Notes under the pieces: model-generated | What the model saw: only the letters and a program-made list of their open reading frames with translations | Database searches by the model: none | What the model was told of the DNA's origin: nothing | Assembly: GCA_021825295.1 (NCBI GenBank) | Contig: JAKAHV010000005.1 | Span: forward strand, 8,512-72,511 | Source of the DNA: Nitrospirota bacterium | GTDB lineage: Bacteria; Nitrospirota; Thermodesulfovibrionia; Thermodesulfovibrionales; JdFR-88 | Length of the DNA: 64,000 bases | Direction: 5' to 3' | Made by a program: the position numbers and the translations under genes | Part shown: positions 12,380 to 41,996 of the stretch, piece by piece | How positions within the stretch are numbered: position 1 is the first letter of the stretch | How the letters are laid out: every line of letters starts with the position of its first letter

Positions 12380-14317
12380 ATGGACCTCCGCGTCAGGGGC
12401 GGGCAAAAACGCGAAATACCCGTAAAGGAAGGGCAGAGCATCCTTGCGGCCCTCAAGGCGGCGGATATCTATCTTACGGCCTCCTGCGGCGGGAAGGGCA
12501 CCTGCGGCAAGTGCAGGGTAAAAATCCTGGACGGCCCCGTGGAGATAACCGGATTTACGAAACTCACCCGGCAGGAGCGCGATTTCGGCATCGCCCTTGC
12601 CTGCCAGAGCTTCCCCAAAGGCGATGTCAGCATAGAGATACCGGAGACTTCGAGAATCGCCGTGGGGGAGAAGATCGCTGTCTCCCGCGCTGAGAACCTG
12701 CTCGGGCTGGTCTCCGAAATGGGCCAGGAGATAGCCCCGGCCGTAAAGACGGCCGGGCTGGAACTGGTCCCGCCGGCCATTGGCGACAATCTGAGCGACC
12801 TTGAACGCCTGAAAAACGGGCTTCAAACGGCCGGGATAAGCGGCATGGATTTTCCGCATGATTTCGCGGCCGGGATGGGCAAGGCGTTCAGAGAGGCCGA
12901 CTGGAAGGCGGATCTGCATTATTATCTTATTGATGGTCAAGGCGGGCTTCCGTCCGGGCAAGGCGGGGCCGCGTGCTCCGCGGTCGCCATCTATCCTTCC
13001 CGGGACAAGGCAAACGGCCGCTACGGCGCAGCCGTGGACATCGGCACGACAACGGTAGTCGTTTATCTTGTGGACCTCTCGAACGGGAAGCTCATCGATG
13101 CGGGGTCCACATACAATTCACAGATCCGCTACGGGGACGACGTCATTACCAGGATTGTGCACGCCACGGAGAGGGGCGGGCTGAAGGACCTCAGGCAAGG
13201 CGTGCTTGAGGACATAAACGGGCTCATAGGCGCGGTATCGCAGAGGCACGCGATAAACGCAAGGGCGATCGAGATGGCCGTGATAAGCGGCAATACCACA
13301 ATGAGCCACCTCTTCTGGGGCCTGGACCCCGCCTCGATAAGGGAGGAGCCCTATGTCCCCGGCGTGAGCTATTTCCCGGTGTGGAAGGGCGGCGATTCGG
13401 GCCTTACGATGAACCCCTGCGGGGCGGTCTACACGATGCCCTGCATGGCCAGCTACGTGGGGGGCGACATCGTATCGGGCGTGCTGGCCTCCGGCATGAC
13501 AAGGAAGAAGGAGGCCGCCCTTTTCATGGACATCGGGACCAACGGCGAGGTGGCCGTGGGCAATAACGAGTGGCTGATAACCGCGGCCTGCTCGGCCGGC
13601 CCCTGCTTCGAGGGTAGCGGGATAAGGCACGGAATGAGGGCGACCGAGGGGGCGATAGAATCCGTCAGGATAACGCCCGGCATGGAAGTCGAGGCCGGCG
13701 TCATAGGCAACCACTCCCCGGTTTACCCGAGGGGCATATGCGGCTCCGGCATGATAGACGCGATCTCGGAGATGTTCATGCGGGGTGTCATCGACAGGAA
13801 GGGGATTTATCACGGACAGGAGGGGGCTTTGGCGAAGAGGCTCCGTTCGGGGGAGGATGGGATGGAATTCGTGATAGCCTCCGGGCCCGCCGGGGAGATC
13901 GCGCTCACACAGGCGGACATCGAGAACATACTCCGGGCCAAGGCGGCCATCTATGCCGGCGTCTCCACGCTAGTAAAGGAGGTCGGTCTCTCGCTGGCAG
14001 ACATAGAGAAGGTGTACATCGCGGGCGGGTTCGGCAATTACCTGAATGTGGAGAGGGCAATAATGCTGGGGATGCTTCCGGACATCCCCAGGGAAAAGTT
14101 CATCTTTCTGGGGAATACCTCCATAGCTGGAGCCTATCTTGGCCTCGTCTCTGAGGGGCTAAGGCGGGAGGCCGAACAGATCGCCTCCCGGATGACCTAC
14201 ATGGAGCTTTCAGTCTCGCCCGGCTTCATGAGCGAGTACATGTCCGCGCTCTTTCTGCCCCATACCGACTCAACCCAGTTCCCCACGGTGGAAAAACTGC
14301 TTAAGGGTTTGCAATAG
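12380..14317 (+). CDS. 2Fe-2S ferredoxin fused to ASKHA ATPase domain (RACo-like corrinoid reductive activase family, DUF4445)
   Basis: Plant-type ferredoxin cysteines ([14 protein letters not shown]...LACQS), followed by a long ASKHA-type domain (DIGTTTVV..., DIGTNGE...). Confidence 0.7.
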
Positions 14318-18312: not shown

Positions 18313-19428
18313 TTATGCAGGCTTGTCCCTGGGCGTATCGGACTCAAATGGTCCCCGGATGAACTCGAATTCGGGGGCGGCCTCCTCGAAGGCCCTCATA
18401 ACCCTGGGGTCGAAGTGCGAGGGCATCGTCCGCCCGTCGCCTTCAAGTATTATCCTCACCGCCTCCTCGTGGGCAAGGGGCGGCTTGTAGGGCCGCCTGC
18501 TCACAAGAGCGTCATATTGGTCGCAGATCATCACGATCCTGCCTTCGATGGGTATATCCTCCCCCGAAAGGCCGCGGGGATACCCCGTCCCGTCCCATCT
18601 CTCATGATGGTTCAGCGCGATTGAGGCCGCCATCTGCAGATGGGGGTGGCTCGATCCCTGGAGTATCTTTTCGCCCATTACGGTGTGGGTCTTTATTATC
18701 TCGAACTCCCCCGGCAGCAGCCGCGCCCGCTTCAGGAGTATGTAGTCCGGTATGCCTATCTTGCCGATGTCGTGCATCGGACTGGCGAAGGAGATGGTTT
18801 CGACGAAATCCGCGGGCATGCCCATGGTCTGAGCGATCCTGTTTGAATAGAGGCCGATGCGGATGTTGTGGGCGCCCGTATCGGCGTCCTTGTACTCGGC
18901 CACGGCCGTCAGGCGCTGGACGATCTCGTTGTTCAGGCTCCTCACCATCGAAAGGGCGTCGGCAAGCTCCCGTGTCCTCTCGTTCACCGTCTCTTCGAGC
19001 GTCCTCTTGTAGTCCTTTTCCATGCGGGAGAGCTTGCTGTATTTCACCGCCCTCTCGACGGAGTGCAGCACATGTATGGATTGGTAGGGTTTGACTATGA
19101 AATCGAAGGCGCCTTTTTGGACCGCGTTTATCGCGGTGCTCAGATCGGCGTGCGCGGTCATCAGTATGACGGGTATCTCCGGATGCTCACTGCGGACCTT
19201 TTCCAGCAGGTCTATGCCCGAGAGCTCCGGCATCTTGATATCGGCAAGCACCGCGTCCACCTTGATCGTGGCCAGCGTCCTTGCGGCCCCCGTTGCGTCA
19301 CCGCATGGGATGACCGGATAGCCGTTTTCCTTCAGAAGACATGAGAGGGCTTCAAGGACGAAAGGCTCATCGTCGACGATGAGTACGGCGCTGTCTATCT
19401 TTTTAACCTGCTCCATCCGCCCGATCAT
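18313..19428 (-). CDS. response regulator with HD-GYP c-di-GMP phosphodiesterase domain (RpfG-like)
   Basis: The receiver domain has VLIVDDEP...DIKMP. The HD-GYP domain has [10 protein letters not shown]...[14 protein letters not shown]. The track start at 19473 is probably too far upstream. Confidence 0.85.
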
Positions 19429-19519
19429 CAGCAAGCCTCCTGTCCAAGTCAAAAAGACCTCAGAAGTATACAAAAGTAAGCAAAAAAGTTCAATAATCGC
19501 GAAACATCAACGTGAACTT

Positions 19520-19699: not shown

Positions 19700-20383
19700 T
19701 CAGTTTTTCAGGTAGAGCTTTAACCGTTCGCCGAGCTTGACGGGGGATGTGGTAGTCCTGGGCATGAACTCGGTGGCCCCGGCCTTTATGGCGTGTTCCA
19801 CGTCGTTCACGGACGATGCGGTGGAGAGGACCAGGATCGGCGCGGACTCCATCCCCGGCCTTGCCCTGATTTCGCACAGCACCTCAAAACCGTTTGCCCC
19901 GCGCTGGTTTAAATCCATAAGGACAAGATCTACCTGTTCCCTGTCAATCAGGTCCAGGGCGGCGGAGCGGTCCGCCGCCTCGAATACGGTGAAGCCTTCG
20001 AGGACTATCCTGCTCCGGTATACCTGCATGGTTGTGACGTTTTCAGCCAGTATAAGCACCTTCTTCCTGGCCTGGCCGACGGCCTCGTGCTCGTGTTTTT
20101 TAATGAACGAGGACAGGACCTCCTGCTGTTCGGGCGTCATGTTTATGAACATCAGCCCCATCCCTACGCCGGCCTTTGAATGCTGTACACGCGCGGCGAC
20201 GTTAAGGGTGCCGCCATCGAGCGGGAGGGAGACGTCAATCATGTTTCCTGCGGGGAAATGGCGGCCGGTATGGATGTATATGCCGCCTTCGCTCAAGTCA
20301 AGGCCCATCGCGCTTATGACCTTGTTCAGGACGACCTGCCTTCTCAAGATCATCCTTGGCTTTTTGCGCTTTTCAATCCCCAA
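19700..20383 (-). CDS. PilZ domain - receiver domain fusion protein
   Basis: N-terminal PilZ motifs RMILR (RxxxR) and DLSEGG (DxSxxG). The C-terminal CheY-like receiver has the phospho-acceptor context DLVLMDLN, but AEN replaces the usual acidic pair. Confidence 0.75.
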   Translation of the reverse strand: MGIEKRKKPRMILRRQVVLNKVISAMGLDLSEGGIYIHTGRHFPAGNMIDVSLPLDGGTLNVAARVQHSKAGVGMGLMFINMTPEQQEVLSSFIKKHEHEAVGQARKKVLILAENVTTMQVYRSRIVLEGFTVFEAADRSAALDLIDREQVDLVLMDLNQRGANGFEVLCEIRARPGMESAPILVLSTASSVNDVEHAIKAGATEFMPRTTTSPVKLGERLKLYLKN

Positions 20384-23194: not shown

Positions 23195-23974
23195 ATGAAC
23201 GAAAAAGATTTCAGCCGCCTGAAAAGGCGGTTCCTGCGATATGCGGACGGTTACCGGATGGATAAGCCGGATGAACAACGCAATATCGCCCTTAAAAGAA
23301 AGCACACGCTAAAAGTCTGCCGGGAGATGGGTTTCATAACCCGCGGCGAGGGGCTCGGGGCGGAGGACGCCCTCCTGGCAAGGACAACCGCCCTGCTGCA
23401 CGACATAGGCAGGTTCCCCCAGTACGCGAAGTTCAAGACATTCAATGACGGGGCTTCGGTAAACCACGGGCAGCTCGGGGCGGAGATCCTCCTGAAAGGG
23501 GACTTCCTGGAGGGCCTCGCCCGGAGGGAGCAGTCTCTTGTAATCAGGACCGTGAGATACCACAACGCGTTTGCCGTCCCCAGGCTGGACAAAAGGACCG
23601 TCTTTTTCCTGAAACTGGTCCGCGACGCGGACAAGCTTGACATCTGGAGGGTATTCATCGAGTATTTCGGGCTGGGAAAAAACAAGAGGCCGACCGCAGC
23701 GGGCCAGGACCTTCCGGATGGGGAGGACATCTCCCCCGGCGCGCTCCGCAGGGTCCTCGAGAACCGCCTGATCACCCTTGCCGAAGTGCACAACTTGAAC
23801 GACTACAAACTCCTTCTCCTGTCGTGGGTTTTCGGCATCAATTTCAGGACCACCTTCCGTCTTTTCCGGAAAAGACGCTGCCTTGAGCGGCTCGCGGCCT
23901 ATCTGCCGCCGGGAGAACCCACGGGCAGGGTCGTCCGCCACCTGAAGGAATTCGTCTCCGTCAGATCTTCCTGA
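23195..23974 (+). CDS. HD-domain protein of unknown specificity
   Basis: An H...HD metal motif (KHTLKV...ALLHDIGR) and a later D (RDADKLD). 259 aa. Confidence 0.65.
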   Translation: MNEKDFSRLKRRFLRYADGYRMDKPDEQRNIALKRKHTLKVCREMGFITRGEGLGAEDALLARTTALLHDIGRFPQYAKFKTFNDGASVNHGQLGAEILLKGDFLEGLARREQSLVIRTVRYHNAFAVPRLDKRTVFFLKLVRDADKLDIWRVFIEYFGLGKNKRPTAAGQDLPDGEDISPGALRRVLENRLITLAEVHNLNDYKLLLLSWVFGINFRTTFRLFRKRRCLERLAAYLPPGEPTGRVVRHLKEFVSVRSS

Positions 23975-25025
23975 GCAAAAGCGCGTGGGCCGAAAGCCCC
24001 GCCCCGAAGGCGACCATCATGAGCCAATCGCCCCTCTCCACCCTGGCCGAGTCCATTATCCGTCTCAGGACGAACCATACTGTCGGGGAGGACATGTTTC
24101 CGAAATCAACCAGCACCTGCCTTGCCGCGGCTACCTGCTCCTCCGACAGACCTATGGCGTCCCTCACGGAGTTGATGATCTTTTCCCCGCCGGTATGGAG
24201 CGCCCAATGCCTGATGTCTCCCCGCCCGAGGCCGGCCAGGGACAGCGCTTCATCGACGGCCCTGCGGGCGGCCTCTTTTACGAGGGCCGGCAGGTCTTCG
24301 GAGAGTTGGTTATGGAGCTGGCCGCCCTTATGGACAAACCTGATGGACTCCCTCTGTTCGGGGGCGTAAAAGGCCGCCCCCGCGCCTATCCGAAACCCCT
24401 GCGGACGGTCCCACAGGACGGCCGCGGCCGCCCCGTCGGCAAAAAGCGCGTTTGAGAGCATGAGGCTGATGTCCTCTCCCATCTGGAAGGTGCAACTGCA
24501 TATCTCGACCGAGACGCTCGCCGTGACCCCGCCGGGGGGGCAGAGGGCCCTGGCCGCCTGGAGATTGGGGATTGCCCCGCCGCAGCCAGCCCCGGCCAGG
24601 TCGAAGGCCCAGATTGTCCTTGAAAGCCCCATTTTTTCTATCAGGTAGGTCGAGATGCCCGGGCATATATAGCCCGTGCAGGTGTTCACCACTATGTGGG
24701 TCAGTTGTGAGGGGGAGATGCCCGCCCGGGCGAGCGCCCCGCCAAGCGCCTCCGCCCCAAGCCGGACCGCTTCTTCCGTAAAGCGGGCAATGCGGGCGTC
24801 AGGGTCCTCGCAGACGAGCGAGGCGGGGTCCTTCAGGGCGAAATGCCTGTTTGCGACTGACGGGTGCTCAAAGATTTTCTTCATGAGTTTCAGGGCCCTT
24901 CTGCCCAGCCGCCCGCTATAGTTTTGCTCCAGAAACTCCCGGGCCTGCCGCTGGCTTGCCCGAAACGCGGGGACGGCGACATCGAATGCCCCCAGATAAA
25001 TTTCCCGCTCCGCCGTCATGACCAC
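23961..25025 (-). CDS. type III polyketide synthase (chalcone/stilbene synthase family)
   Basis: Catalytic Cys context NTCTGYICPG, His WALHTGGEKI and Asn FGNMSSPTV. 354 aa. Confidence 0.85.
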   Translation of the reverse strand: MVMTAEREIYLGAFDVAVPAFRASQRQAREFLEQNYSGRLGRRALKLMKKIFEHPSVANRHFALKDPASLVCEDPDARIARFTEEAVRLGAEALGGALARAGISPSQLTHIVVNTCTGYICPGISTYLIEKMGLSRTIWAFDLAGAGCGGAIPNLQAARALCPPGGVTASVSVEICSCTFQMGEDISLMLSNALFADGAAAAVLWDRPQGFRIGAGAAFYAPEQRESIRFVHKGGQLHNQLSEDLPALVKEAARRAVDEALSLAGLGRGDIRHWALHTGGEKIINSVRDAIGLSEEQVAAARQVLVDFGNMSSPTVWFVLRRIMDSARVERGDWLMMVAFGAGLSAHALLLRKI

Positions 25026-26512
25026 CCGTTGTAGAGGCCCAATGTCCTAAGGGCGCCCCTTATGAAGACAGTATGGCGCCAGAGCGGCTGTTTAAATCCA
25101 AGCCAGTGGAAGAGCCGTCCGATCCGGGGCAGGAGGTTCAGGCCGAGGGAGCCGGAGTTGATAAAATTCATGTGGTGGCGCATCCGCTCGCCGATCTCGC
25201 TCATGATCCAGCCGGGGCTTACCTCCGGGGATGTGTAGAAGACCGGCTCCAGCATCTCTTCCGGGGCAAGCGATAAAACCCCCTGGCGCCTCGCGATGCC
25301 TTCCAGCCCGGTCCCCGGATATATTCGCAGGCCGATATTGAAAAAAACGGGATCGGAGGTGCGTATGCGCCTGCTGGCGAACTCCAGGGTCTCCCTGACA
25401 GTCGACTTTGTCTCGCCCGGGCCGCCCAGCAGGAATATCCAGAAGCATGGAAGTGCGTGGCGCCTCATCACCTCCGCGGCTCTGCGGACATGCCCCTCGT
25501 CGTAGCCCTTGCAAAGACCATCCAGCACCTTGCCGGAAGCGCTCTCCGCGGTGATGCCCGCGCCGACAAAACCGGCCCGCTCCATCTCATCAATGAGGTT
25601 GTCGTCGATGAAAAGCGGATTGAGCTCGATGGTCTGGAGCCTGGGCCTTCCGCCGGGCCCGCCGGAAGATCGTGAAAGTGAAATCTCCTGGCAGACGGCG
25701 AGGGCATGCTCGTAGGGCGAGTTGAAGACATTGTCCACGAACTCGATGTCCCTGAGCCCGGAGGCGCAGAGCCTGCGGACCGCCTCGGCTGCGAGGCCGG
25801 GCGGAGAAAGCCTGTAACGGCCGCCCTCTATCTTCCTGTAGGTGCAATAGACGCAATTGAACCCGCAGCCGGCCTTGGTCTGGACGGCGGCGGTGGCAAA
25901 AAGCCCCGCGTATCTTTTAACATCCACCCACCTGCTGTAATCCGCGGAGATGGCGCGCCCGGAGAGCGACGTCCCGTCTGAAGGGGGCGCCGTCCTTATC
26001 AGCGTCCCTTTCTCCAGCCATGCCGTGCCTGGCGTGAGGCCCGCCGCCTCGCGCAGGCCGCGCCCCTCCCCCAATCTTTCAAGCAGGAGGGGAAAGACCG
26101 TCTCTCCATCGGACAATACGGCGCAGCCGGCGCCGCTCAGCCTCAAAAGCGCCTCCGGCATGACGGCGACAGCCGGGCCGCCGAGCACAACGGGCGGCTT
26201 TTTGCCCCGGCTGCGGCAAGACCCCTCCGGGCCCAGAAGCGCGGCAAGGCTTCGGACCTCACGGGCCGCATAGAAGAGGGGGGTTTGCATGTCGTTATTG
26301 TCTATGTTTCTCATGGAGACGCCGGCAACATCGGGGGAGAAGCCGTGGAGGGCGGCGGCTACGGCGCGACCGGGGTCGGGCTCGAACATGAGGTCCAGAA
26401 ATTTCACTTCATGGCCCGCATCCTGTGCCGCCTCGGCCACAAGACAAGCCCCTGCGGGCATCACAGGCACCGGCAACCTGTTTCTGTTTGACGCAATCAC
26501 GAGCACCTTCAT
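25016..26512 (-). CDS. B12-binding-domain radical SAM enzyme
   Basis: MKVLVIASNRNRLPVPVMPAGACLVAEAAQDAGHEVKFLDL is a cobalamin-binding Rossmann-like N-terminus. It also has the CxxxCxxC cluster GCGFNCVYCTY. I use the ATG at 26512, since the upstream 80 codons of the track ORF have no homology-like features. The stop overlaps the PKS start by 10 nt. Confidence 0.85.
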   Translation of the reverse strand: MKVLVIASNRNRLPVPVMPAGACLVAEAAQDAGHEVKFLDLMFEPDPGRAVAAALHGFSPDVAGVSMRNIDNNDMQTPLFYAAREVRSLAALLGPEGSCRSRGKKPPVVLGGPAVAVMPEALLRLSGAGCAVLSDGETVFPLLLERLGEGRGLREAAGLTPGTAWLEKGTLIRTAPPSDGTSLSGRAISADYSRWVDVKRYAGLFATAAVQTKAGCGFNCVYCTYRKIEGGRYRLSPPGLAAEAVRRLCASGLRDIEFVDNVFNSPYEHALAVCQEISLSRSSGGPGGRPRLQTIELNPLFIDDNLIDEMERAGFVGAGITAESASGKVLDGLCKGYDEGHVRRAAEVMRRHALPCFWIFLLGGPGETKSTVRETLEFASRRIRTSDPVFFNIGLRIYPGTGLEGIARRQGVLSLAPEEMLEPVFYTSPEVSPGWIMSEIGERMRHHMNFINSGSLGLNLLPRIGRLFHWLGFKQPLWRHTVFIRGALRTLGLYNGWS

Positions 26513-26664
26513 GACCCGGATTTCTCCCGCTCCCAGGAAATCGCGGCGATTTACCCAAAGGAATTCCCGAAGAGCCCGAAATTTTAAGAAGGGGGCAGGT
26601 CCCGGAAAAATTATATCAGGCTGCGGCCGTCTGGCATAGACTATATGAAAAACCCGAAGAAGCT

Positions 26665-26842
26665 GGAACCTATCTCCAAATTGACTCCGAAGCGAAAGAG
26701 AGAGGAAATCGTGGCAGACAAGGAGAAAAGGAAAAATCGCCCGGAGGCGCAACAGCGTTTCGTTGAGGACGATTTTTCCTTGGCGACACCGAATGCTGCG
26801 ATTTCAGCCTCTTGCAGCCGGAAGCGATTTTGAGATAGGTTC
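26665..26842. repeat. 178-bp inverted-repeat element (family E)
   Basis: ggaacctatctccaaatt at 26665-26682 faces agcgattttgagataggttc at 26823-26842. There is a nested stem aaggaaaaatcg / cgatttttcctt. The 20-mer ggaacctatctcaaaatcgct also occurs at 3412-3432. Confidence 0.55.
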
Positions 26843-27978
26843 TAAAACGTGACCCTGTTTTTGCCGGCCCTCTTGGAGTCGTACAGGGCGACGTCGGCCC
26901 GCTTCAGGATCTCGTTTGGGTCGGGGATGCCGTTGTAAGCGGCGATGCCCAGGCTGAGGGTGGGTCTCACCGTGATGTCTTCCGGGTAGCTTATGTCCTC
27001 CACCATATGGCGGATCCTCTCGGCAAATCCACCCGCGCCTTCAAGCGGCGTCTGCGGCAGGATGAGCATGAACTCGTCACCTCCAAGTCGCCCCAGGATA
27101 TCGGATTTTCTCAGCGCCCCCGAGAGGGTCTGCGCTACCGTTCGAAGCACCCTGTCGCCGGCCTCGTGCCCAAGGGTGTCGTTTACCAGCTTGAAGTTAT
27201 CGAGGTCGCAGATTATGAGGGAAAGCGGGGCATGGTATCTCCTGGCCCTGTCCACTTCGTATTCGAGCCTCTCAAGCAGGGCCCTTTTATTGAGGAGCCC
27301 GGTCAGGTCATCGGACCTGGAAAGCTGCTCCAGCTTCTCTATGAAGCGCTTTCTTTCCATCTCCGAGGCCTTCCTGCTCGTTATGTCCCGGACATACTCG
27401 ATCACATGGGAGACCCTCGCGTTCGAGTCCAGGATCGGATAGGTATAGATCTCGACCCATGCGTCGGCGCCGTCTGGGAGGCGCAGCCGCTTCTCTTTCG
27501 CGCAGGGATTGGTGGTAAGCATCGTTTTTTGCACGACGCAGTCCTCGCATACGGAGGCGCGGCCCTGCATCTCATAGCACCGGCTGCCGCCTGTCAGCTC
27601 CGCTACGGTCCTGTTCTTCAAGGCGGCGTACTCGCTGTTTACCTTTACTATGCGGAAGTCGTTTGAGAAGATGCTGAAGGGGTCGCGGATGCTTTCGAAT
27701 ACGTCGCCCAGGAAACGCGAAGACCTTCTCATCGCGTCTTCCGAGCGCTTCTGCTCCTTCAGTATGAACTGGACTATAAGAGTGGATATGACGGCCGAGA
27801 CTACAAGGGCGTCTATGGCGCCTGTCAGAAGCAGGCCGGCGTCGATGCGCCCATCTCTTATAAGGCTCAAGGCCGTGTTAAACAGGGCTACAAGGGATTC
27901 AGATACAAAAAATGAAGTCCAGAGAAGGTGCCGGGGACTTGAGGACTTGAACTTCTCAAAAAGATTTCTCCCCCCCAT
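26842..27978 (-). CDS. PAS-domain diguanylate cyclase (GGDEF)
   Basis: N-terminal membrane segments, a PAS domain, and a GGDEF domain with an intact active site (RLGGDEFMLIL). Confidence 0.85.
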   Translation of the reverse strand: MGGRNLFEKFKSSSPRHLLWTSFFVSESLVALFNTALSLIRDGRIDAGLLLTGAIDALVVSAVISTLIVQFILKEQKRSEDAMRRSSRFLGDVFESIRDPFSIFSNDFRIVKVNSEYAALKNRTVAELTGGSRCYEMQGRASVCEDCVVQKTMLTTNPCAKEKRLRLPDGADAWVEIYTYPILDSNARVSHVIEYVRDITSRKASEMERKRFIEKLEQLSRSDDLTGLLNKRALLERLEYEVDRARRYHAPLSLIICDLDNFKLVNDTLGHEAGDRVLRTVAQTLSGALRKSDILGRLGGDEFMLILPQTPLEGAGGFAERIRHMVEDISYPEDITVRPTLSLGIAAYNGIPDPNEILKRADVALYDSKRAGKNRVTF

Positions 27979-32599: not shown

Positions 32600-32923
32600 A
32601 TGGGGCCCTTTATAAAAACCCTCCTTACGGTGAATGACCGTATCTATGATCTGGCCGTCCTTGTCTACTCGGGGGCGGGCCTGATAGCGTGGGCTGCTCC
32701 GAAGCGGGCCGGCGGGCGGCCTCTGCTTCCCAGGCTGGCCAAGCTTTCATTTGTATTTTTTGTCCTGGCCGGGATGCCGAGGATGCTCACGTATCACAGC
32801 TTCGAATGGCGGAGCGCGGTAAGCTCGGGGCAGGCGGAAACGCTGCTGTTAAAACTCTGCGTCCTCTGTCTTCTTGCCGGCCTGGGCACATACGCCTGGC
32901 TCAGGGCAGGCAAAAAGGGTTAG
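32600..32923 (+). CDS. small hypothetical membrane protein
   Basis: 107 aa with three hydrophobic segments and no recognisable motif. Convergent with the SAM synthetase gene, overlapping it by 4 nt. Confidence 0.4.
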   Translation: MGPFIKTLLTVNDRIYDLAVLVYSGAGLIAWAAPKRAGGRPLLPRLAKLSFVFFVLAGMPRMLTYHSFEWRSAVSSGQAETLLLKLCVLCLLAGLGTYAWLRAGKKG

Positions 32924-34140
32924 CAGACCCTGTATCTTCCCCTGGCAAGACGGCCTGTAAAGGAGAGGATATTCTTCTCTGACAGCTCCTCCTCGATTAC
33001 GCCGTTTATCAGGCCGGAGACGTCCCCTATGCGGACCCCTTTTTGCAGCCTCAGTTTCACCGATATGGCGGCGGGCCTGTTGACCTGCACACCTATGCGG
33101 CTTACAAGAAGCACATAGGCCTCGCGCACGCCCTCCGCCGCCTCAACGACCTTTCTTGCAAGCAGGTGCGCCAGGACGCCGTAGATCTTTCCCGTATGGC
33201 TCAGCGGGTTTTTCCCCGCGGCGGCCTCCATGGTGATGGGCCGCCCCGGACTTATCAGGCCGTTTGCGCGGTTGCCCCTGCCCACCTGGCCGCTGTCGGC
33301 GTCCTCGGCGCTGGTGCCAAGCACGCTCAGATAGATGCCGTCCGCGCCGCGGCCCCGCGCATCGAGACTATTTAGATGGACCAGGAAATCATCGAAATAG
33401 GCGCCCGTGTTTCCCTTTCGCAGAAACCCCTCTATCGCGGCCAGTATCATCTCTTTTCTCACAAAGTATTCCGCTTCGGCCCTCAGGAACCTGTCTATAA
33501 GCGGCATCGCGATTGTTACCGTGACGGACCTGTTCTCCCTCACCGCCATCACCTTTATGTCCTCTCCGGTCTCGGGATAGCGCCGCTTGAAGGCCTTTGA
33601 ATTCAAAAACCCTTCGAGTTCAAGCACCAGGGTCTCGGTGGGCGACAGCGGCCAGTAGCCGATGGCGGCCGAGGTGTCGTTGGCGCCCAGGAGCCTGCGC
33701 CTGCCGCCTTCCGCATAGATCTGCGCCAACTGGGCGGAGCCCGGTGCAAGCTCCGGATGGAAGGTGATGTGCCTTTCGGGCTCCACAAACCGCAGATTGG
33801 CCGCAAGCCACTTTCTTGCGGCCTCCACCGCTATGTCTGCTACCGGGATTTCGACGCGCCCTGCCCGGAAGGTGGCCCTGTCTCCCATGAAAAAGCGCAT
33901 CGGCCTTATGATCCGGCCTCCCTGGAAGGCCTTTTGCGCCCGGCCCGCAGCCAAAAAACCCTTGTCGGCGTTATGGTGCAGGACCGTGCCCGCAATCCGC
34001 ATGTACTCTTTTGACAGGGACAGCGAAATGGCCTCCGAGAGGAGGTCCGCCATCGTGTCCGGATGGCCCAGCCCCTTCCTTTCGACGCACTCCACAGCCT
34101 CCTCGGATACGCTATGGCCGCCCAGGGATTCGATTTTCAT
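32920..34140 (-). CDS. archaeal-type S-adenosylmethionine synthetase (MAT, PF01941-like)
   Basis: VECVERKGLGHPDTMADLLSEAIS...VLHHNADK matches the archaeal MAT N-terminal signature (ERKGLGHPD...HHNTD), not bacterial MetK. Confidence 0.85.
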   Translation of the reverse strand: MKIESLGGHSVSEEAVECVERKGLGHPDTMADLLSEAISLSLSKEYMRIAGTVLHHNADKGFLAAGRAQKAFQGGRIIRPMRFFMGDRATFRAGRVEIPVADIAVEAARKWLAANLRFVEPERHITFHPELAPGSAQLAQIYAEGGRRRLLGANDTSAAIGYWPLSPTETLVLELEGFLNSKAFKRRYPETGEDIKVMAVRENRSVTVTIAMPLIDRFLRAEAEYFVRKEMILAAIEGFLRKGNTGAYFDDFLVHLNSLDARGRGADGIYLSVLGTSAEDADSGQVGRGNRANGLISPGRPITMEAAAGKNPLSHTGKIYGVLAHLLARKVVEAAEGVREAYVLLVSRIGVQVNRPAAISVKLRLQKGVRIGDVSGLINGVIEEELSEKNILSFTGRLARGRYRVC

Positions 34141-39342: not shown

Positions 39343-40905
39343 TTGGCTTCAAAAAGCTTTTCCGACAGGGTCTGGTCTTTCTTCTCCTCCATTAAGCTTG
39401 CAATCGCAATATTCGCCTTAATCGGCCTTACCTCCATTGTGGGCACCGTGATAGAACAGCAGGCCTCCTACAATACGAACATCAGGGTGCTTAACCATCT
39501 TGTCGGGCAGGGGCTTGCGCCCACGGCCTACAGGGTGCTGGACGCCCTGGGGTTCATGAACATGTACCGTTCCTGGTGGTTTTTGTCGCTGCTGGTGCTC
39601 TTCGCGGTAAACCTGCTTGTCTGCTCGATTGACAGGTTCCCGGCCATCTGGCGCATCATGCGGGCCCCGGTAAAGCCGCTGGCGGCGGAGCAGATGATGA
39701 AGATGCCCATAAAGGCGGAATTCAGGTTACAGGGGAGCCCGGAGGAGATCGAGCGGAAGGCCGCCGCCGGGATGAAATCCATCGGTTTCAGGGCGGCCAG
39801 GCATGAAGAGGGGGACGGCGCGGTCGAGCTTTTCGCGCAGAAGCACGCCTGGAGCCGTTCGGGTGTCTTTATCACGCATTTCAGCATCCTCATAATCATG
39901 ATCGGGGCCGTATCGGGCATCTTCTTCGGTTTCAACGCGATGTTGAACCTGCCCGAGGGCTACTCCACAAACGTCGTCTTTTCCCGTTCCGTCGATCTCT
40001 CCGACCAGGCGGAAAACGCCGTAAGGGCGAACCTGATGGGCGCGCTGGACTCCGCGGGGGGCGACATCAACCAGGCCGCCAGGGCCGCAGGCGAGGATGC
40101 GGCCAGCTTCAAAAAGGGCATGGAGCAGGCGGGGCTTATCCCCCTTAATTTCCAGGTGCTCTGCCAGCAATTCGAGGTCAAATACTACGGGCAGAGCGAT
40201 ATGCCGAAGGCATACAGGAGCCTGCTTACGGTGATTGATCACGGCAAGCCGGTCCTCACCAAGTGGGTTGAGGTGAACCATCCGCTTAAATACCATGGCG
40301 TTACGTTCTATCAGTCAAGCTACGGCCTCATGGACGACCTGTCAAACGGCATAGCCGAGCTCGATGTGAAATCCCCGAACGGGCAGTCCGTGACGGAGCG
40401 GCTTAAGATCGGCCAGAGCTTCCAGATACCGGGCACCGAGGAGACGGTGAAGCTGGCGGAGTTCAATCCGGCGCTGGCCTTCGACGATTCCGGGAAAGCC
40501 ATAACGTACTCGCAGATGATGACAAACCCCGCCGTCAGGGTCGAGATAACGGACGGCAAAGGGCCCGGGGTGTCCAAATGGATAGCCCAGAGATATCCGG
40601 AGACCTGGAGCCTGCCGGACGGCAGCACCGTGGGCCTGAAGGATTTCTGGGGCGTCCAGTACACGGGGCTGCAGGTCAGAAAAGACCCCGGCGTGTGGAT
40701 CGTCTATCTGGGCTGCATAACCCTGGCGCTCGGCCTTATGGTGGCTTTTTTCATGAGCCACAAGAAGATATGGATTCGCCTTGAGCCCGAGCAAAAAAAG
40801 AAGGGCACGCGCCTCATGATTGCGGCCACTTCCAACAAAAACAGGCAGGCATTCGAAAGGACCGTCGAAAAACTCGCCCTCGAATTGGAAAAAGGAGGTA
40901 AATAG
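39343..40905 (+). CDS. ccsB: System II cytochrome c biogenesis protein CcsB/ResB
   Basis: SSIKLAIAIFALIGLTSIVGTVIEQ is the ResB N-terminal signature. A large periplasmic domain and a C-terminal TM segment follow. Confidence 0.85.
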   Translation: MASKSFSDRVWSFFSSIKLAIAIFALIGLTSIVGTVIEQQASYNTNIRVLNHLVGQGLAPTAYRVLDALGFMNMYRSWWFLSLLVLFAVNLLVCSIDRFPAIWRIMRAPVKPLAAEQMMKMPIKAEFRLQGSPEEIERKAAAGMKSIGFRAARHEEGDGAVELFAQKHAWSRSGVFITHFSILIIMIGAVSGIFFGFNAMLNLPEGYSTNVVFSRSVDLSDQAENAVRANLMGALDSAGGDINQAARAAGEDAASFKKGMEQAGLIPLNFQVLCQQFEVKYYGQSDMPKAYRSLLTVIDHGKPVLTKWVEVNHPLKYHGVTFYQSSYGLMDDLSNGIAELDVKSPNGQSVTERLKIGQSFQIPGTEETVKLAEFNPALAFDDSGKAITYSQMMTNPAVRVEITDGKGPGVSKWIAQRYPETWSLPDGSTVGLKDFWGVQYTGLQVRKDPGVWIVYLGCITLALGLMVAFFMSHKKIWIRLEPEQKKKGTRLMIAATSNKNRQAFERTVEKLALELEKGGK

Positions 40906-40907
40906 AA

Positions 40908-41996
40908 TTGGAAAGCTCGTTATTTTTCGGCCTTTCCACTATGGCATACATCCTGGCAATGGTGGTCTACATAACCTATATCGGCTTCAGGAAGAAGGCG
41001 ATCGGGGTCACGGCGAGTGGTCTGACCATGTTCGGCTTCGCCTCGCAGACCCTGGCGATACTGCTTAGATGGAAGGAATTCTACCAGATCTCCGGCATGG
41101 GGCTTTTGCGCTCCATACCGCTTACAAACCTCTATGAATCGCTGGTCTTTTTCGTATGGTGCCTCATACTGGGCTACCTGATAGTGGAGTTCCGCTATAA
41201 AAACCGCTCCTTCGGCGCCTTCGTGACTCCGGTGGCTGCCCTTGCCCTGCTGTTCATAAGCCTCTCGGGTATGTCCACGCAGATAGAGCCCCTGGTGCCG
41301 GCCCTGCAGAGCAACTGGCTTCTGGCCCACGTGACGCTCTCTTTTATCTCCTATTCGGCCTTTGCCCTCTCCTTCAGCACGGGGCTCATGTACCTGATAG
41401 CCACCACAAAGCGCGGAGAAGGCGCCTACGCGTTCTGGACAGTGACGCTGGGTGTGTTCCTTGCGGTGCTTATGGCCATGGTGCTTGACTTCATAAGGTT
41501 CAAGGCGGCGGGCCTGGCGCCGGGCTCTGAGGAATTCATAAAAAGCTTCCTCTTCAAAAGCACCTACAAAAACCCCGAGGCTTCCATGCGGCTGGTAAGC
41601 TATCTGGCCACGATCCTGATCATATTCCTGACATGGAGGTATGGGGGGGCCCTCAAGAGGATAATCGAAGGTTTTAAGCTCCAGCCCGCGACGCTCGATG
41701 AGATAACCTACAAGGCCGTGGCCATAGGCTTTCCGATTTTCACCCTTGGCGGCCTCATATTCGGGGCCATCTGGGCCGACCAGGCATGGGGTGTTTACTG
41801 GAGCTGGGACCCCAAGGAGACCTGGTCCCTCATAACCTGGTTCATCTACGCATTCTATCTGCACGCGCGGTTCCTGAGGGGATGGCGCGGGCACAAGATC
41901 TCGGTGGTCGCCGTAATGGGTTTCGTGGCGGTTATATTCACGTACCTCGGGGTCAATCTGCTTTTAAGCGGGCTGCACTCCTATGGGAGCCGGTAG
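40908..41996 (+). CDS. ccsA: System II cytochrome c biogenesis protein CcsA/ResC
   Basis: WWD-type tryptophan-rich motif WGVYWSWDPKETWSLITW. TTG start 9 nt after AAGGAGG. Confidence 0.9.
   Translation: MESSLFFGLSTMAYILAMVVYITYIGFRKKAIGVTASGLTMFGFASQTLAILLRWKEFYQISGMGLLRSIPLTNLYESLVFFVWCLILGYLIVEFRYKNRSFGAFVTPVAALALLFISLSGMSTQIEPLVPALQSNWLLAHVTLSFISYSAFALSFSTGLMYLIATTKRGEGAYAFWTVTLGVFLAVLMAMVLDFIRFKAAGLAPGSEEFIKSFLFKSTYKNPEASMRLVSYLATILIIFLTWRYGGALKRIIEGFKLQPATLDEITYKAVAIGFPIFTLGGLIFGAIWADQAWGVYWSWDPKETWSLITWFIYAFYLHARFLRGWRGHKISVVAVMGFVAVIFTYLGVNLLLSGLHSYGSR

Follow-up and report, generated by a model that had tools for sequence, protein, structure and literature searches.

A conserved cobalamin-dependent radical SAM and type III polyketide synthase gene pair from anaerobic bacteria: a candidate operon for methylated phenolic lipids

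To our knowledge, pathways for phenolic lipids and polyketide quinones have been described only with ordinary S-adenosylmethionine (SAM) methyltransferases and O2-dependent oxygenases. Operons for alkylresorcinols that combine a methyltransferase, a flavin adenine dinucleotide (FAD)-dependent oxidoreductase and a type III polyketide synthase (PKS) have been characterised in cyanobacteria and in aerobic Planctomycetota (PMC10896814). Type III PKS products from anaerobes were unknown until the DquA paper of 2022, according to that paper (PMC9827899), and polyketide quinones have been proposed to be useful when O2 is scarce (PMC9927152). The subject of the present analysis is a pair of genes in a 64,000-nucleotide stretch of the genome of a Nitrospirota bacterium (contig JAKAHV010000005.1), referred to below as the window. 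In this pair, a gene encoding a cobalamin-binding radical SAM enzyme (B12-rSAM, or rSAM for short) is located immediately upstream of the gene for a type III PKS.

The pair was found to be an operon that is conserved across anaerobic phyla. From sequence relationships, and by analogy with characterised enzymes, it is probable that the PKS makes a phenolic lipid of the alkylresorcinol or alkylpyrone type and that the B12-rSAM methylates a carbon of this lipid without O2. An earlier note on this DNA, made from the sequence alone, had stated that its author knew of no characterised pathway with such a pairing. In agreement with that statement, no description of a B12-rSAM paired with a type III PKS was found in the full text of PubMed Central and bioRxiv, subscription-only papers being outside the scope of the search. 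The new element is that, in a putative phenolic-lipid operon built on a type III PKS, the obligate partner is a B12-rSAM, an arrangement that is both widespread and uncharacterised.

Conservation of the pair was assessed from both sides. A pattern scan based on the rSAM alignment was carried out on one genome per GTDB species and yielded at least 528 rSAM relatives, the best 80 loci of which were analysed. A reciprocal scan of metagenome contigs, based on the PKS alignment, yielded 80 loci, and 66 of these had sufficient flanking sequence to be evaluated. Pair counts were derived from tblastn rather than from open reading frame (ORF) calls (shadow ORFs on the opposite strand had been picked in several loci of high GC content). 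The PKS gene was located immediately downstream of the rSAM gene, on the same strand, in 69 of the best 80 of at least 528 genome loci, with 44-60% identity; the PKS at locus L071 was a more distant homologue, with 34% identity. Three of the 11 genome loci that lacked an adjacent PKS gene were cut by contig ends and the other eight were real exceptions. The reciprocal result was similar, with the rSAM gene accompanying the PKS gene in 60 of the 66 metagenome loci (upstream on the same strand in 57 and on the other side of the PKS gene in three); the remaining loci had either other B12-rSAMs (four loci) or none (two loci). When the distance matrices of the rSAM and PKS proteins were compared over 99 loci, they were correlated (Mantel r = 0.87, p = 0.001). 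These results confirmed that the two genes are paired far beyond chance and that they co-evolve. The pairing to which the earlier note had drawn attention is conserved in relatives and across phyla.

The pair is carried by anaerobic lineages. Of the 80 genome loci, 36 were from Nitrospirota, 18 from Desulfobacterota, 15 from Planctomycetota, 4 from Elusimicrobiota and 7 from other or unclassified taxa. Among the Desulfobacterota carriers were metagenome-assembled genomes (MAGs) of Geobacter and one cultured organism, Pelotalea chapellei DSM 13688 (locus L056); the anammox genera Scalindua, Brocadia and Jettenia were among the Planctomycetota carriers. On average, proteins from the same phylum were slightly more alike than proteins from different phyla, both for the rSAM (57% versus 53% mean identity) and for the PKS (62% versus 56%); this small gap is consistent with either old divergence or horizontal spread. 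Apart from the pair itself, the flanking genes were unrelated between loci, which suggests that the pair moves as a cassette. In the window, the GC content over the pair (24001-26000) was 62.9%, compared with 55-60% in the adjacent 2-kb bins, a difference that is mildly consistent with cassette-like, horizontally mobile behaviour.

The features that make up the locus in the window are as follows.

25016..26512, minus strand: cobalamin-binding (class B type) radical SAM gene, 498 aa; product with a predicted TsrM-like fold, apparent sister of TIGR04072.
23961..25019, minus strand: type III PKS gene, 352 aa; alternative GTG start at 25025.
25016..25019, minus strand: probable ATGA stop/start overlap of the rSAM and PKS genes, as indicated by the sequence, public gene calls and the junctions of relatives.
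26610..26637, minus strand: promoter-like site (ATGCCA, 16-nt spacer, TG-extended TATAAT), a consensus match only.

The upstream ORF of the pair extends on the minus strand from 26752 to 25016 in its longest form, and the downstream ORF from 25025 to 23961. For the rSAM gene the start chosen was the ATG at 26512, which has GGGAG before it. Both genes are intact and co-oriented, and they overlap with either PKS start. While the earlier note was correct on the two ORFs and on their overlap, it gave the overlap as 10 nt, which assumes a PKS start at the GTG at 25025; it is most likely that the PKS gene starts at the ATG at 25019, so that the overlap is 4 nt (ATGA). This ATG is the start in independent gene calls on identical public contigs, is preceded by GGTGG just upstream, and agrees with the N-termini of homologues; a junction of -4 was present in 24 of 116 related loci. 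Over all 116 junctions, 27 were overlapping, 23 were at 0-30 nt and 91 were at 100 nt or less. It is probable, from the sequence, that the ATGA overlap couples translation of the two genes.

The promoter-like site is located approximately 98 nt upstream of the rSAM start, within the 329-nt gap that follows a GGDEF-domain gene. It has 10 of 12 consensus matches together with the TG extension, and the region scanned held two sites of this kind, compared with 1.1 expected. With regard to an RNA element or riboswitch upstream of the operon, the whole window was without an Rfam match above the gathering score. Because of the ATGA overlap, the upstream promoter-like site, the presence of a convergent gene downstream of the PKS gene, and the same gene order in 69/80 genome and 57/66 metagenome loci, the two genes would constitute an autonomous, horizontally mobile operon and a single biosynthetic unit.

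The rSAM protein, which is identical to a record from a Nitrospiraceae MAG, matched the Pfam models B12-binding (PF02310, 50 bits, cutoff 32) and Radical_SAM (PF04055, 60 bits, cutoff 29.5). Its CxxxCxxC motif (C216/C220/C223) is invariant, and more than 100 columns are invariant in the alignment with 17 homologues. The top NCBIfam model was TIGR04072 (238 bits, cutoff 360), followed by BzaD (TIGR04385; 101 bits, cutoff 450) and TsrM (TIGR04428; 85 bits, cutoff 500). Ten rSAM relatives gave 288-339 bits with TIGR04072 and 138-184 bits with BzaD, again all below cutoff. Membership of TIGR04072, TsrM, BzaD, HpnR, BchE, PhpK or any other NCBIfam model was rejected, as every score was below cutoff; grouping with a family of established but unrelated function, which would have counted against the original proposal, was not observed. 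By sequence, the rSAM family is an unnamed sister of the uncharacterised TIGR04072 family, and the characterised enzymes closest to it are BzaD and TsrM, two C-methylases that act on aromatic sp2 carbons.

An AlphaFold (AF2) model of the rSAM had a mean predicted local distance difference test score of 83 and a predicted template modelling (TM) score of 0.85. The best PDB match of this model in Foldseek was TsrM (E = 1e-28, TM 0.83), with TM values of approximately 0.6 against CysS, MgmA, AprD4, OxsB and TokK. In a profile alignment, R69 of TsrM, the Arg that is reported in the TsrM structure paper to lie below the corrin ring (lower-axial), aligned with an invariant Arg (R68) of the rSAM, in the motif S-x-R-N-x-D. 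Judged from the model and the alignment, the rSAM very probably binds cobalamin in the manner of TsrM.

The PKS protein matched three Pfam models, Chal_sti_synt_C (72 bits), Chal_sti_synt_N (43 bits) and FAE1_CUT1_RppA (64 bits), each with a cutoff of 27. Its top PDB matches were all type III PKSs, and the best profile matches were Ectocarpus PKS1, 2-pyrone synthase and PKS18. Consistent with the initial reading of an intact Cys-His-Asn triad, C146/H275/N308 were invariant in 14 homologues and aligned with C164/H303/N336 of the chalcone synthase CHS2. The sequence signatures NTCTGY[IL]C and [VI][HY][KR]xGQL[HY]NQ mark the protein as a member of a distinct type III PKS subfamily. Of the CHS2 positions examined, F215 (F193 in the PKS), T197 and S338 are kept in this subfamily; T132, M137 and T194 are replaced by Cys, the last as in C205 of the long-chain enzyme PKS18. 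Prediction of the starter and product from active-site residues, with the CHS and PKS18 positions mapped, was attempted and the pattern was judged uninterpretable.

Accessory proteins encoded beside the pair in relatives were identified by clustering and tblastn, and were annotated by Pfam, NCBIfam or PDB. The two-gene core was the commonest form and fuller clusters were a minority of the related loci; a hydroxylase (U32-like or FAD aromatic) and a UbiE-like methyltransferase were present in approximately 10-20% of loci. Geobacterales-type loci (L023, L031, L040, L115, L127, L132, L141 and L144) carry a cluster of the FAD monooxygenase type, with the order FAD aromatic monooxygenase (PF01494), class I methyltransferase (PRK06202/UbiE-like), DUF2147 (in most), rSAM, PKS and a convergent second B12-rSAM. 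The order in four Nitrospirota loci (L028, L035, L042 and L076) is methyltransferase, U32-like protein, FabF, rSAM, PKS and DUF2147. Three metagenome variants have a divergent rSAM, methyltransferase, U32 and PKS, with an adjacent second rSAM that is downstream of the PKS in L089 and L122 and upstream of the cluster in L105. The second B12-rSAM is unrelated to the first (22% identity), is BchE/HpnR-like according to NCBIfam and is usually convergent. It was found beside the PKS in L023, L040, L046, L056, L089, L105, L115, L122, L127, L130-L132, L141, L143, L144 and L153; its presence in the Geobacterales-type clusters and in some metagenome clusters suggests that there are two cobalamin-dependent steps in those pathways.

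The U32-like protein (407 aa, with a Cys-rich C-terminus) was encoded in L028, L035, L042, L076 (4970-6193, for example), L089, L105, L122, L130 and L153. It is a weak match to PF01136 (25 bits) and to PDB entry 5d88 (E = 3e-6), and NCBIfam gave no match. The U32 proteins include UbiU and UbiV, which are O2-independent ubiquinone hydroxylases. The U32-like protein takes the cluster position that is occupied by the FAD monooxygenase in the Geobacterales-type clusters, which suggests that O2-independent and O2-dependent hydroxylases are swapped between clusters.

WrbA, an NAD(P)H:quinone oxidoreductase that scored above its equivalog cutoff, is encoded directly upstream of the pair in seven genome loci, mostly from anammox and other Planctomycetota. 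The FabF proteins of relatives' clusters also scored above the equivalog cutoff. DUF2147 adjoins the pair in 13 genome and 11 metagenome loci and resembles H. pylori HP1028, a lipocalin-like protein. A gene encoding an exported cupredoxin of small size, in which the CuA-like motif C-x3-C-x3-H-x2-M is present, is located directly upstream of the pair in eight loci (L007, L030, L038, L041, L044, L045, L064 and L070; for example, L070:7583-7984), and some of the WrbA loci also have a CuA-motif cupredoxin upstream. COX1 and SCO1 are found near the pair in four Nitrospirota loci (L011, L029, L033 and L047 are among the loci with cupredoxin, oxidase or superoxide dismutase neighbours), and Cu/Zn superoxide dismutase is encoded upstream of the pair in three loci. 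The O2-dependent FAD monooxygenase and the superoxide dismutase or haem-copper oxidase neighbours suggest that in some hosts the pathway is oxygen-linked rather than strictly anoxic. By analogy, the fuller clusters resemble the Srs and Hid operons and support the assignment of the pair to phenolic-lipid or quinone biosynthesis.

In the pathway that we propose, the PKS would condense an acyl-CoA starter, most likely a fatty acyl-CoA, with malonyl-CoA units, and cyclisation would give the phenolic or pyrone head group of an alkylresorcinol- or alkylpyrone-type lipid. The rSAM would then move a SAM-derived methyl group, via methylcobalamin, to a carbon of this product without O2. Methylation, on the ring or the chain, is by analogy the most likely reaction of the rSAM, and the most plausible target is an electron-rich aromatic ring, as with TsrM and BzaD. 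The end product of the window locus would be a C-methylated phenolic lipid. In fuller clusters the core would be elaborated to methylated and methoxylated alkyl-hydroquinones or quinones by the class I methyltransferase, the FAD monooxygenase or the U32-like putative O2-independent hydroxylase, FabF, the second B12-rSAM, WrbA and DUF2147. The idea of an O2-independent route to a C-methylated lipid, which was part of the initial proposal, is supported by the kinship of the rSAM with TsrM and BzaD and by the clusters of relatives; it does not hold throughout, as some relatives use an O2-dependent FAD monooxygenase.

Several observations weigh against this pathway. The rSAM gene has no adjacent PKS gene in eight of approximately 77 evaluable genome loci, and most loci, that of the window included, are without an adjacent hydroxylase or methyltransferase gene. 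In the PKS subfamily, the CHS2 gatekeeper F265 is replaced by an invariant Asn (N237) and G256 by a bulky Phe or Tyr; departures at F265 are also found in several type III PKSs of bacteria, so that this change does not speak against membership of the superfamily. The best NCBIfam match of the PKS was DpgA (165 bits, cutoff 425), a malonyl-CoA-only enzyme that makes a small aromatic product, so that a non-lipid PKS product is possible. In the rSAM, Val or Ile (family motif EFVD[NS][VI]FN) aligns in the profile alignment with E273 of TsrM, a residue that is reported to ligate the unique iron of the cluster and to be the basis of non-radical catalysis. With this Glu replaced, the rSAM may, unlike TsrM, bind SAM on the cluster and carry out radical chemistry, which may be the canonical 5'-deoxyadenosyl kind, directed at an sp3 carbon, or a different radical reaction. 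Some B12-rSAMs, moreover, are not methylases (BchE, OxsB and AprD4).

An unlikely alternative for the reaction is that the rSAM is not a methyltransferase and instead catalyses C-C coupling or cyclisation (to cyclophane-like or dimeric lipids), ring rearrangement or dehydration, or makes an unusual starter before the PKS acts. No characterised methylase model scores the family above its cutoff, the closest model (TIGR04072) has no known reaction, replacement of the radical-blocking Glu makes canonical SAM cleavage possible, OxsB and AprD4 are among the structural matches, and in the operon the rSAM gene comes before that of the PKS. The order of genes, however, is a poor guide to the order of reactions, and TsrM and BzaD, clearly the best relatives in sequence and structure, are methylases, as are most characterised B12-rSAMs; the TsrM-type Arg under the corrin is also kept. 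A very improbable assignment is that the pair takes part in the biosynthesis of ladderanes or other fatty-acid-type lipids, as the name of TIGR04072 would imply. Although that model is the top NCBIfam match and anammox Scalindua, Brocadia and Jettenia carry the pair, 11 of 11 proteins were below its cutoff (238-339 versus 360 bits), most carriers are non-anammox Nitrospirota, Desulfobacterota and Elusimicrobiota, from which ladderanes are not known, the rSAM is paired with a type III PKS and not with an enzyme of type II fatty acid synthesis (FAS-II), and no PKS-like genes were reported in Kuenenia (Rattray et al. 2009, PMC2649909). The range of hosts, the scores below cutoff and the kind of gene that accompanies the rSAM gene were the reasons for rejecting the ladderane assignment.

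For the role of the product, the likeliest of the alternatives, though still tentative, is that of a phenolic lipid with a structural or protective function, which anaerobes or microaerophiles would make under stress or on exposure to oxygen and which would act as an antioxidant or rigidify the membrane rather than carry electrons. Such a lipid can be likened to the alkylresorcinols of Azotobacter cysts and the alkylpyrones of sporulating Negativicutes, and the DquA alkylpyrones of anaerobic Sporomusaceae provide a precedent (PMC9827899). This role is favoured by the prevalence of the two-gene core, the Cu/Zn superoxide dismutase, haem-copper oxidase and SCO1 genes near several loci, the adjacent gene for the periplasmic, lipocalin-like DUF2147 protein, and the cyclic di-GMP (c-di-GMP) genes around the pair in the window and in a 74%-identical relative. 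Physiology can be read only weakly from neighbouring genes, however, and the WrbA, methyltransferase and hydroxylase neighbours suggest quinone chemistry in some hosts. These same neighbours, together with the CuA-type cupredoxin, COX1 and SCO1 genes beside the pair in several Nitrospirota, are the grounds for a rather less likely role, as a membrane redox carrier or its precursor, an anaerobic polyketide quinone in which the B12-rSAM and U32 enzymes replace O2-dependent steps. Polyketide quinones from type III PKS clusters are documented as alternative electron carriers (PMC9927152). The redox carrier suggested in the earlier note thus finds support in some relatives; it is weak for the window, where the 64 kb hold no hydroxylase, methyltransferase or WrbA homologue. 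In most loci the pair is bare, and a resorcinol or pyrone would have to be hydroxylated further before it could carry two electrons reversibly; the hydroxylase role of the weakly matching U32-like protein is putative, and the oxidase and superoxide dismutase neighbours fit a protective role equally well. A still more specific form of this idea is doubtful: that the pair is the invariant core of an O2-independent, benzoquinone-type polyketide quinone pathway in anammox bacteria, Geobacterales, anaerobic Nitrospirota and Elusimicrobiota, in which the B12-rSAMs add the ring C-methyl groups and the U32-type enzyme the hydroxyl. If it were true, these organisms, which are presumed to rely on menaquinone, would have a second, higher-potential membrane electron carrier, coupled to WrbA and haem-copper oxidase modules.

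In the window, the locus consists of the two core genes only. When accessory methyltransferase, FAD-monooxygenase, U32, WrbA, FabF, DUF2147, cupredoxin and second-rSAM sequences were used as tblastn queries over the 64 kb, they matched the rSAM itself only, and a larger cluster in the window was rejected on this basis. A PAS-GGDEF gene (26842-27978) is directly upstream of the pair, and the convergent HD/HDIG-domain gene (23195-23974, plus strand) shares its last 14 nt (23961-23974) with the 3' end of the PKS gene. The closest relative, which is 74% identical, keeps the order GGDEF, pair, HD and the tail-to-tail overlap. The GGDEF and HD neighbours are not kept in the wider family, and a patatin gene is not kept even in the 74%-identical relative. 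Other c-di-GMP signalling genes in the window are a REC-HD_5 gene (HD-GYP-like; 18313-19473) and a PilZ-REC gene (19700-20383).

A gene for RACo, the reductive activator of corrinoid proteins, with Fer2, RACo middle and C-terminal domains, is located at 12380-14317 on the plus strand. Its presence indicates that corrinoids are in use, in a metabolism of the Wood-Ljungdahl type, and hence that a cobamide is available to the B12-rSAM. An archaeal-type S-adenosylmethionine synthetase gene (PF01941, 463 bits; 32920-34140, minus strand) is approximately 6.4 kb from the pair. Genes for a LarC-type nickel insertion protein (PF01969; 3518-4816, minus strand) and for a system II cytochrome c biogenesis pair, ResB-like and then CcsA-type Cytochrom_C_asm (39343-41996, plus strand), were also noted. 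The segment 34001-36000 has a GC content of 45%, compared with approximately 58% elsewhere, and contains an ORF for an N6/N4 DNA methylase (PF01555; 34908-35858, minus strand); judged by its sequence, it is probably a horizontally acquired restriction-modification island. The window otherwise holds mostly regulatory and housekeeping genes; the richness in respiratory modules of which the earlier note spoke is not conspicuous in it.

The module, the two genes of which are passed on together, occurs in environmentally important anaerobes from at least four phyla, including anammox bacteria, reducers of iron and sulfur, and Nitrospirota of the subsurface. If the proposed methylation of a phenolic lipid is correct, polyketide phenolic lipids would be a new substrate class for cobalamin-dependent radical SAM enzymes, and a large TIGR04072-like clade that genome miners label 'ladderane' would gain its first functional foothold. 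New lipids, methylated alkylresorcinols or quinones, would also be expected under the proposal and could serve as biomarkers of anoxic settings. The availability of a cultured carrier, Pelotalea chapellei DSM 13688, and of a complete genome of Ca. Brocadia pituitae makes the question directly testable.

Compared with the characterised enzymes TsrM (tryptophan 2-C-methyltransferase, PDB 6wte/6wtf) and BzaD (benzimidazole C-methylase), the rSAM has the same combination of an N-terminal cobalamin domain and a radical SAM barrel. TsrM is its best match both in fold and in PDB sequence, and the corrin Arg is shared. In contrast, the identity of the rSAM to them is only approximately 22%, the Glu at position 273 of TsrM is Val or Ile, and the genomic partner is a PKS rather than a thiopeptide or cobamide pathway. 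The closest full-length profile is TIGR04072, 'lipid biosynthesis B12-binding/radical SAM protein' (the rSAM of ladderane clusters, for example Kuste2803), and like the members of that family the rSAM adjoins a thiolase-fold condensing enzyme and is found in anammox bacteria (PMC2649909); it differs in that the partner is a type III PKS and not FAS-II genes, and in that the tested members fall below the cutoff.

With respect to pathways, the polyketide quinones of Mycobacterium and Streptomyces are likewise alkyl aromatic lipids derived from a type III PKS and tailored by methylation and hydroxylation. Those pathways employ ordinary SAM methyltransferases and O2-dependent oxidoreductases in aerobes, whereas here the constant tailoring enzyme is a B12-rSAM, the hosts are anaerobes and a quinone-forming enzyme is absent from the window. 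The DquA locus of Sporomusaceae also combines a type III PKS with a methylating partner in anaerobes, for a long-chain phenolic or pyrone lipid; the methyltransferase there is conventional, the taxon range is narrow and no B12-rSAM is present (PMC9827899).

The Srs (Streptomyces griseus SrsABC), Hid (cyanobacterial hidABC) and planctomycetal operons are the nearest in layout, with the type III PKS as the last or core gene accompanied by ring-tailoring genes, and the Geobacterales-type order of FAD monooxygenase, class I methyltransferase, (rSAM) and PKS follows the same plan (PMC10896814). Unlike in Srs and Hid, the SAM methyltransferase and flavin oxidoreductase are optional here, and absent from the window; in some clusters a U32-like protein takes the place of the flavin enzyme and a second B12-rSAM is present as well. 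With Asn in place of F265 and signature motifs of its own, the PKS forms its own subfamily, and the B12-rSAM encoded immediately upstream of it is its only constant partner.

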